A stretch of 64,000 nucleotides of DNA, taken from Tuberibacillus sp. Marseille-P3662. GTDB taxonomy: Bacteria; Bacillota; Bacilli; Bacillales; Sporolactobacillaceae. The stretch's first letter is position 1. Each line of letters opens with the position of its first letter. The stretch is taken from assembly GCF_900178005.1 (NCBI RefSeq), contig NZ_FXBS01000006.1, positions 1,395,585 to 1,459,584 of the forward strand. Direction: 5' to 3'. Below the pieces are notes generated by a model that saw only the letters and a list, made by a program, of their open reading frames with translations, ran no database searches and was not told where the DNA came from. Positions 44,327 to 44,575 of the stretch are shown piece by piece. The position numbers and the translations under genes were made by a program.

Positions 44327-44575
44327 TAAAAAAAGACAATGATAGACGAGAACACCTATCATTGCCTGATATATCGGTTGCTCCCATCTGAACGTAAGTG
44401 CTCCACCTAGGGACAAAACTCCCCCAGCCGTGACAGCGCCGCACTTTTTCAGGTACGACTCCAGCTTAGAAGATGACGACGCTTCCCAAGCTTCGGCGAA
44501 ATCCCCTTTCCATAACGATCAACGGTGGTCAACCTTCCGTCATGTACTGATGATTTTCGCACCCCAAACCTATCA
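44327..44575 (-). promoter_or_regulatory. Lysine riboswitch (L-box)
   Basis: The minus-strand RNA contains GGGGTGCGAAAATCATCAGTA, TGGAAAGGGGATTTCGCCGAAGC, GTCATC, CTGGAG and GCTGTCACGGCTGGGGGAG. These closely parallel the B. subtilis lysC leader blocks (GAGGTGCGAAC..AGAGTA; TGAAAGGGGAGCGTCGCCGAAGC; CTGG; GCTGTCA..TGGAGGGCT) as I remember them. It ends in the terminator caatgatag-(10)-ctatcattg plus a U-run (+ 44327-44364). Confidence 0.65.

Follow-up and report, generated by a model that had tools for sequence, protein, structure and literature searches.

Comparative genomics has linked lysine riboswitches (L-boxes) with genes of the NhaC family since 2003. The gene concerned, lysW, belongs to the NhaC superfamily (COG1757) and is a candidate lysine transporter gene. 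It is the most widely distributed of the riboswitch-controlled candidates for lysine transport, being found in Firmicutes and in Gamma- and Betaproteobacteria, including Shewanella (PMC5584792 section 12). According to the same section, lysW and yvsH had been identified earlier, in its reference 30, as genes for lysine transporters. C. difficile CD1655 has the same L-box–NhaC arrangement, and a 2024 review states that the function of its protein is unknown, giving as options a lysine transporter or a true Na+/H+ antiporter which takes over pH control at low lysine (PMC11477304 section 11). In addition, NhaC-family transporter genes of several Firmicutes have been reported to be preceded by Tyr T-boxes (PMC2494555, Table 1, section 19). 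The literature that we searched yielded no transport assay for LysW proteins or for the Tyr T-box NhaC transporters.

We examined such a locus in Tuberibacillus sp. Marseille-P3662, within a stretch of 64,000 nucleotides whose full length is called the window below. The locus contains a lysine-sensing RNA (L-box) equipped with a terminator, which lies ahead of an NhaC-family transporter gene and is an ordinary member of the known riboswitch–gene pairing. When the window was scanned with cmscan and Rfam 15, the Lysine family (RF00168) matched positions 44388-44575 on the minus strand with 82.5 bits (gathering score 30) and an E-value of 4.7e-20, which is far beyond chance. The match spans model positions 1-182 of 182 without truncation, and no other match in the 64-kb window reaches its gathering score. 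The blocks around the five-helix junction are kept (GG-UGC, CGCCGAAGC, GCUGGAG, CUGUCAC and GUGGAG), and the nucleotides of the five-way junction itself are in place (GG-UGC, GCCGAAG, CUGG, CUGUCA and GGAG). The original prediction had placed a lysine riboswitch ahead of a 534-aa NhaC-family gene and had proposed an RF00168 scan as its check; both the significant full-length match and the PF03553 match of the protein (E 4.9e-74) bear it out. The L-box blocks that it quoted are all present inside the RF00168 match, on the minus strand, which it had left unstated.

From 5' to 3' on the minus strand (44620-44240), the leader consists of an AT-rich promoter-like stretch, the aptamer, a hairpin with a U7 tail, a spacer of about 65 nt, the ribosome-binding site AAGGAGG (44260-44266, 9 nt before the start codon) and the ATG at 44250. 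The 3' end of the aptamer is located 138 nt before this ATG on the same strand. A consensus scan identified a putative promoter, TTGTCA-16 nt-TATTGT, at 44586-44613 (minus strand; 9/12 matches), from which transcription is predicted to start at about 44578-44580, that is, at the beginning of the extended P1 helix described below. We consider it highly probable that, in Tuberibacillus sp. Marseille-P3662, the segment 44388-44575 (minus strand) is a canonical L-box within the 5' leader of a LysW-type gene that forms a monocistronic unit, with lysine-OFF transcription termination as its likely mode of action, and this RNA would be expected to bind lysine.

The regulated gene occupies 42646-44250 on the minus strand and was defined by its open reading frame, a Pfam search and an NCBI match. 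Its 534-aa product is identical over its full length (100% identity and coverage) to the NCBI entry 'Na+/H+ antiporter NhaC family protein' of Tuberibacillus sp. Marseille-P3662, with which the start codon agrees, and its sole Pfam domain is PF03553 (Na_H_antiporter) at residues 173-500. We then compared the protein with the curated NCBIfam models. The NhaC equivalog TIGR00931 gave 43.2 bits against a cutoff of 370, and the Tet(35) model gave 361 bits against a cutoff of 750, covering residues 173-519 only; the names Tet(35) and NhaC are over-annotations for this protein. Many homologue entries at JGI are named 'tetracycline resistance efflux pump', which is probably a case of name propagation. 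As a PF03553 protein orthologous to L-box-bearing genes (LysW, COG1757), the 534-aa protein is a member of the published lysW family, in which the NhaC-superfamily proteins are candidate lysine transporters. A search of the PDB with its sequence returned nothing at E <= 1.

A terminator-like hairpin was detected by pattern scan just past the stop codon of the transporter gene (42605-42632, minus strand), so that the transporter unit looks monocistronic. Farther downstream, in the interval that separates the transporter gene from the SleB-like gene, a weak match to ctRNA_pGA1 (42030-42103, minus strand; 26.8 bits, E 0.045) consists mostly of a GC-rich hairpin with a U run and is probably a terminator rather than a ctRNA; this match and weak matches to DdR11 were dismissed as chance or as a terminator hairpin. 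Directly upstream of the leader and on the same strand there is a fructose-family PTS operon (44713-48625, minus strand), whose products are a PRD/HTH regulator of 663 aa that contains EIIB/EIIA domains, an EIIBC protein (472 aa) and an EIIA protein (152 aa). Between this operon and the L-box promoter (44640-44712), no canonical terminator was found by eye or by a pattern scan of 42400-44800, and read-through transcripts from the PTS operon would thus also meet the riboswitch terminator.

The expression platform was analyzed by pattern scanning and by RNA folding. The aptamer is closed by an outer 7-bp extension of P1, CAUCUGA / UCAGAUG (44573-44579 with 44385-44391, minus strand), which was read from the sequence and the folds; this helix forms in the minimum-free-energy folds of the leader, and the two strands cofold at -13.3 kcal/mol. 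It is followed by a predicted antiterminator hairpin at 44345-44388 (minus strand; RNAfold, -17.6 kcal/mol when folded alone), in which the 5' arm GAUGGGAGCA..CC..UAUCA pairs with UGAUAGGUGUUCUCGUC. The first 4 nt of this hairpin, GAUG (44388-44385), are the last 4 nt of the P1 3' strand, and the overlap between P1 and the antiterminator amounts to only 4-5 nt. At its other end, the antiterminator 3' arm covers the 5' arm, the loop and the first 4 nt of the 3' arm of an intrinsic terminator, which extends over 44328-44367 (minus strand; pattern scan and folds) and is formed by AGGCAAUGAUAGGUG / CGUCUAUCAUUGUCU with the loop UUCU, followed by U7. In the pattern scan, the terminator hairpin (44367-44334, minus strand) has 15 pairs and a loop of 4, followed by TTTTTTTATGG. 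It is the dominant hairpin in the RNAfold folds, and when we folded transcripts with successive 3' ends, the antiterminator was seen in that ending at 44340. The two hairpins are nearly iso-energetic, at -17.6 kcal/mol for the antiterminator and -16.9 kcal/mol for the terminator. An intrinsic terminator had also been part of the original prediction, where it was placed just before the ribosome-binding site; the terminator is real according to both the scan and the folds, and with a spacing of about 65 nt, that description of its position was slightly loose.

We suggest the following switching model, which is predicted from thermodynamics and from the shape shared with related leaders. Binding of lysine in the five-way junction would close P1, including the outer 7-bp CAUCUGA/UCAGAUG helix, and the closed P1 would occupy GAUG at 44388-44385 and leave the antiterminator without its basal stem. 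With the antiterminator weakened, the terminator at 44334-44367 would form and transcription would stop some 80 nt short of the start codon. At low lysine, P1 would be open and the antiterminator at 44345-44388 would form first, hiding the terminator 5' arm and allowing the polymerase to read through into the transporter gene. The platform is predicted in this way to be mutually exclusive and coupled to P1. Since the sequence shared with P1 is part of the antiterminator and not of the terminator, a ligand-stabilized P1 should favor termination, and we infer from the model that the switch is turned OFF by lysine. We also considered another antiterminator, in which the P1 3' strand (CACUUA..UCA) would pair with UGAUAGGUG of the terminator 5' arm; it was prompted by UGAUAGGU, which is common to the P1 5' strand and the terminator. 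This pairing is disfavored by folding and was dropped because the local hairpin at 44345-44388 has a far higher stability and also forms in related leaders.

Next to the features of the single leader, we examined how the L-box is distributed among orthologous genes. A scan of a genome collection with the 534-aa protein gave 458 relatives, from which 80 loci were kept; 38 of these and six closest relatives that were fetched individually, 44 loci altogether, were scanned with Rfam. RF00168 lies directly upstream of the orthologue in 31 of the 44 loci. Among the 38 loci, it was found directly upstream and on the same strand in 27, with 9/19 in the Bacillaceae set and 18/19 in a second set that includes Shewanella (15/15 with RF00168). 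Four of the six closest relatives carry the aptamer, with scores of 93.6-115.3 bits at 65-68% protein identity, and these include Pseudalkalibacillus, Alkalihalobacillus and Bacillus sp. Marseille-Q3570. The Rfam scan detected no L-box at the two Halobacillus orthologues, which are the closest protein relatives (76-78% identity), nor at 11 of the 38 other orthologous loci, indicating that this regulation is dispensable in many lineages. Neither a Lys-specific T-box nor another Rfam element was found upstream of the L-box-less orthologues or in the Halobacillus loci at E <= 1e-3 or 1e-2.

Where the L-box is present, the platform was compared as well. A terminator separates the aptamer from the gene in each of the 16 Bacillaceae leaders, and the terminator core GUAAUGAUAG...CUAUCAUUGC is common to the window and these 16 leaders. 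An alignment of the 16 platforms revealed three terminator pairs with compensatory changes and a conserved GAUGGAG after P1. When each platform was folded alone with a shortened 3' end, an antiterminator of the same shape appeared in 14-15 of the 16, formed from differing sequences, as illustrated by the arms GGGAGCAACC/GGUGUUCUC in the window and GGAGGAUAAC/GUUAUUUUCU in Sutcliffiella. The shared terminator core, the compensatory changes and the common antiterminator shape indicate that the window leader is homologous to a type of regulatory leader that is widespread and conserved. In Shewanella, 13 of the 15 leaders showed no terminator, and weak hairpin candidates were present in the other two. 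Control is usually transcriptional in Firmicutes and translational in Gammaproteobacteria, and the Shewanella leaders, mostly devoid of terminators, agree with the translational control expected of Gram-negative bacteria.

Two further observations were made among the sampled loci. The locus titled Pseudomonas sp. ISL-84 (L004, 2322-3001) is Bacillaceae-like, having a leader and a terminator as in Cytobacillus, and in the interval from its L-box terminator to the transporter gene it contains a Bacillaceae-1 RNA (RF01690, 2650-2723, 60.7 bits). These features point to a mislabelled or contaminated assembly. In Peribacillus faecalis, the lysW orthologue is directly followed by a group II intron domain (L017, 4695-4798; RF02001, 78.7 bits) that is truncated at the end of the contig.

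The surroundings of several L-box-less orthologues were also informative. Orthologues in Halobacillus shinanisalinarum and H. naozhouensis are part of a gene array (L081, 706-7667; L083, 746-7294) in which genes for a sigma-54 activator and an Orn/Lys/Arg-type decarboxylase of 500 aa (PF01276) are found together with the LysW-like gene and an NhaC/ArcD-like gene, which suggests a basic amino acid or amine function for the clade. Directly downstream of three other L-box-less orthologues, from Thalassobacillus, Virgibacillus and a MAG, there is an LL-diaminopimelate-aminotransferase-like gene (L034, 4738-5928; L042, 4772-5950; L032, 4670-5878), which in L034 scored 520 bits with NF006756 against a cutoff of 507; these three loci contained no Rfam element at E <= 1e-3. 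Both the decarboxylase and the aminotransferase contexts suggest a link to the metabolism of basic amino acids or lysine.

The window aptamer itself has the lowest score in the sample, 82.5 bits compared with 91.6-130.3 bits for the other aptamers, and we asked how far it departs from them. In an alignment of 31 aptamers of orthologous leaders, it agrees at 50 of the 57 columns with a conservation of at least 90%. Four of the seven deviant columns result from a matched 1-nt insertion in each P1 strand, by which a consensus A-U pair has become two tandem U.U mismatches adjoining the junction; one is the 3' half of a compensated change from A-U to G-C at the base of P2, and the remaining two are the two sides of the conserved P4 G.A pair, swapped to A.G. 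In the Rfam register of P1 (GGUUUG/CUUACG), 3/6 pairs are non-canonical, a G.G mismatch being present in addition to the U.U mismatches. The P1 U.U mismatches, the P4 A.G swap and the 7-bp outer P1 extension, which lies outside the Rfam model, are the three oddities relative to the 31 relatives. The details of the aptamer are not recovered in the full-length minimum-free-energy fold, which has a z-score of only -1.45. One might read the low score, the tandem U.U and G.G mismatches in the model's P1 and the lack of the element in the nearest protein relatives as signs of a decaying relic, which no longer binds lysine and whose leader constitutively terminates or reads through. We consider this very unlikely, since the match covers the full model with all junction motifs kept, the seven differences at the 57 conserved columns are compensated or paired, which speaks for a structure still under selection and not for decay, and the terminator, the antiterminator and the 7-bp outer P1 extension are intact.

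With a functional lysine-OFF leader as the preferred reading, the question becomes what the LysW-type protein transports. Given the predicted repression by lysine, import of lysine is the likeliest function and, in our view, reasonably probable. Transporters under riboswitch control normally carry the ligand or its precursor. This general rule speaks against a working lysine riboswitch that controls a genuine cation/proton antiporter, used for pH or ion homeostasis when lysine, and with it lysine decarboxylation, is unavailable. Such an antiporter would be compatible with the predicted OFF logic and is still kept as an option in the literature (PMC11477304 section 11; PMC5584792 section 12), and the 534-aa protein has the generic PF03553 domain only, with Tet(35) and NhaC as its best named relatives. 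The score with the NhaC equivalog, however, is 43 bits against 370, the family includes a carrier other than Na+/H+ antiporters, namely the ArcD arginine/ornithine antiporter (NCBIfam NF052307), and the orthologues adjoin the Orn/Lys/Arg-type decarboxylase gene in Halobacillus and precede the LL-DAP-aminotransferase-like gene at three L-box-less loci; we regard the antiporter as unlikely. Under a lysine-ON switch, the protein would be a lysine exporter or a lysine/cadaverine exchanger, and an exchanger would make sense in the decarboxylase array of the close Halobacillus orthologues, but these genes have no riboswitch at all, the P1-shared sequence in the window sits in the antiterminator and not in the terminator, and the other Bacillaceae leaders are laid out in the same way, so that we give this reading hardly any credence. 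More generally, the predicted OFF logic would fit an importer or the pH-homeostasis idea better than export, and it would be unfit for an exporter or a substrate-induced exchanger.

The OFF logic, the decarboxylase array, the aminotransferase neighbours and the ArcD model are circumstantial, and on these grounds we lean towards basic amino acid transport. The original prediction had argued that the family serves amino acid uptake or exchange rather than Na+/H+ antiport. As to uptake, this is plausible, is in the literature already and is the standard comparative-genomics prediction for the two NhaC-family genes of the window; exchange induced by the substrate does not agree with the predicted OFF logic, and the argument cannot be carried over to the whole family. 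We also put forward, as a tentative idea that we rather doubt, that the LysW clade carries basic amino acids and that Halobacillus swapped the riboswitch for a sigma-54-activated decarboxylase operon. If this were true, one transporter lineage would have moved between lysine-repressed uptake and substrate-induced amino acid/amine exchange, and the pair of contexts would be the first concrete handle on the 20-year-old question of the LysW substrate. The window locus and the decarboxylase-linked Halobacillus orthologues are candidates for addressing this question.

The second NhaC-family gene of the window is preceded by a T-box leader at 40178-40375 (minus strand), which cmscan matched to RF00230 over the full length with 83.3 bits and an E-value of 1.9e-17. 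Because the Rfam 15 gathering score of this family is 93, the default Rfam scan missed the element, and the initial reading that there was no T-box was overturned by the scan based on E-values. The leader has the structural features of a T-box, that is, a specifier loop with a codon and a following purine, the conserved T-box sequence UGGGUGGUACCGCG, and a terminator (40186-40159) that overlaps this sequence. A purine is usual after the specifier codon of T-boxes. The specifier is UAC (Tyr) at 40282-40280; it stands in the context GAA-G-UAC-A, immediately followed by the UGUUC strand of the helix with GAACA. A near-consensus promoter, TTGACA-17-TATACT, lies ahead of the T-box. The gene that follows (38735-40129, minus strand) encodes 464 aa from the first GTG and passes TIGR00931 with 497 bits (cutoff 370); the NCBI version has 455 aa, which places the start at ATG 40102 (P0121; 100% identity, 98% coverage). 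The orthologue in Scopulibacillus darangshiensis (61% identity, the closest one fetched) has a T-box that passes the RF00230 gathering score with 97.6 bits and bears the same UAC specifier (GAA-U-UAC-A; L087, 1244-1446). Three NhaC homologues that are less closely related (Bacillus taeanensis, Paenibacillus and Alkalihalobacillus; 48-53% identity) had no T-box upstream, and the link to a Tyr T-box is thus confined to the nearest relative sampled. Of the Tyr or Met specificity that had been suggested for this T-box, Tyr agrees with the UAC codon in both the window and Scopulibacillus, and Met does not.

That two NhaC-family genes with coding regions 2.5 kb apart stand under a T-box and an L-box, as the original prediction had stated, is confirmed by the RF00230 and RF00168 matches. 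The two proteins are about 31% identical over only 170 residues and their adjacency is not kept in the relatives examined, so that the pairing looks like a coincidence and not like a unit, and a conserved pair was rejected. An exception to the non-conserved pairing is the unregulated tandem of a LysW-like and an NhaC-like gene in Halobacillus.

When the locus is set against the described systems, it falls within the published pairing of an L-box with lysW, and the main value of the analysis is correct annotation. The public name of the gene is 'Na+/H+ antiporter NhaC family protein' and its homologues are called 'tetracycline resistance efflux pump', whereas the riboswitch argues that the gene belongs to the lysine regulon and probably encodes a lysine importer. 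With Tet(35) and NhaC (TIGR00931), the 534-aa protein has the PF03553 fold family in common, but it is far below the cutoff of both curated models. The neighbouring T-box resembles the Tyr T-box leaders of NhaC genes such as B. anthracis BA4353 (PMC2494555) in its UAC specifier, T-box sequence and terminator, while it scores below the Rfam 15 cutoff (83.3 versus 93); it is an element separate from the L-box, on a separate and distantly related gene.

The L-box itself shares with the RF00168 type, for example the Bacillus subtilis lysC leader, the five-helix aptamer with its conserved junction motifs and a Gram-positive platform in which terminator and antiterminator alternate and the P1 3'-strand sequence is shared. 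Unlike the lysC leader, it controls a transporter gene and not a biosynthetic gene, and it differs from the type in the two junction-side U.U mismatches and the outer 7-bp helix of P1 and in the change of the P4 G.A to A.G. The closest counterparts are the lysW leaders of Cytobacillus, Sutcliffiella, Halalkalibacterium, Pseudalkalibacillus, Shewanella and others, which precede orthologous genes (50-68% identity). The window leader has the same terminator core as the Bacillaceae members, while its aptamer is the most divergent of the lysW leaders sampled, and its gene is located between a fructose-type PTS operon and a SleB-like gene, compared with a yunB/SNF-symporter neighbourhood in the relatives L082-L086.
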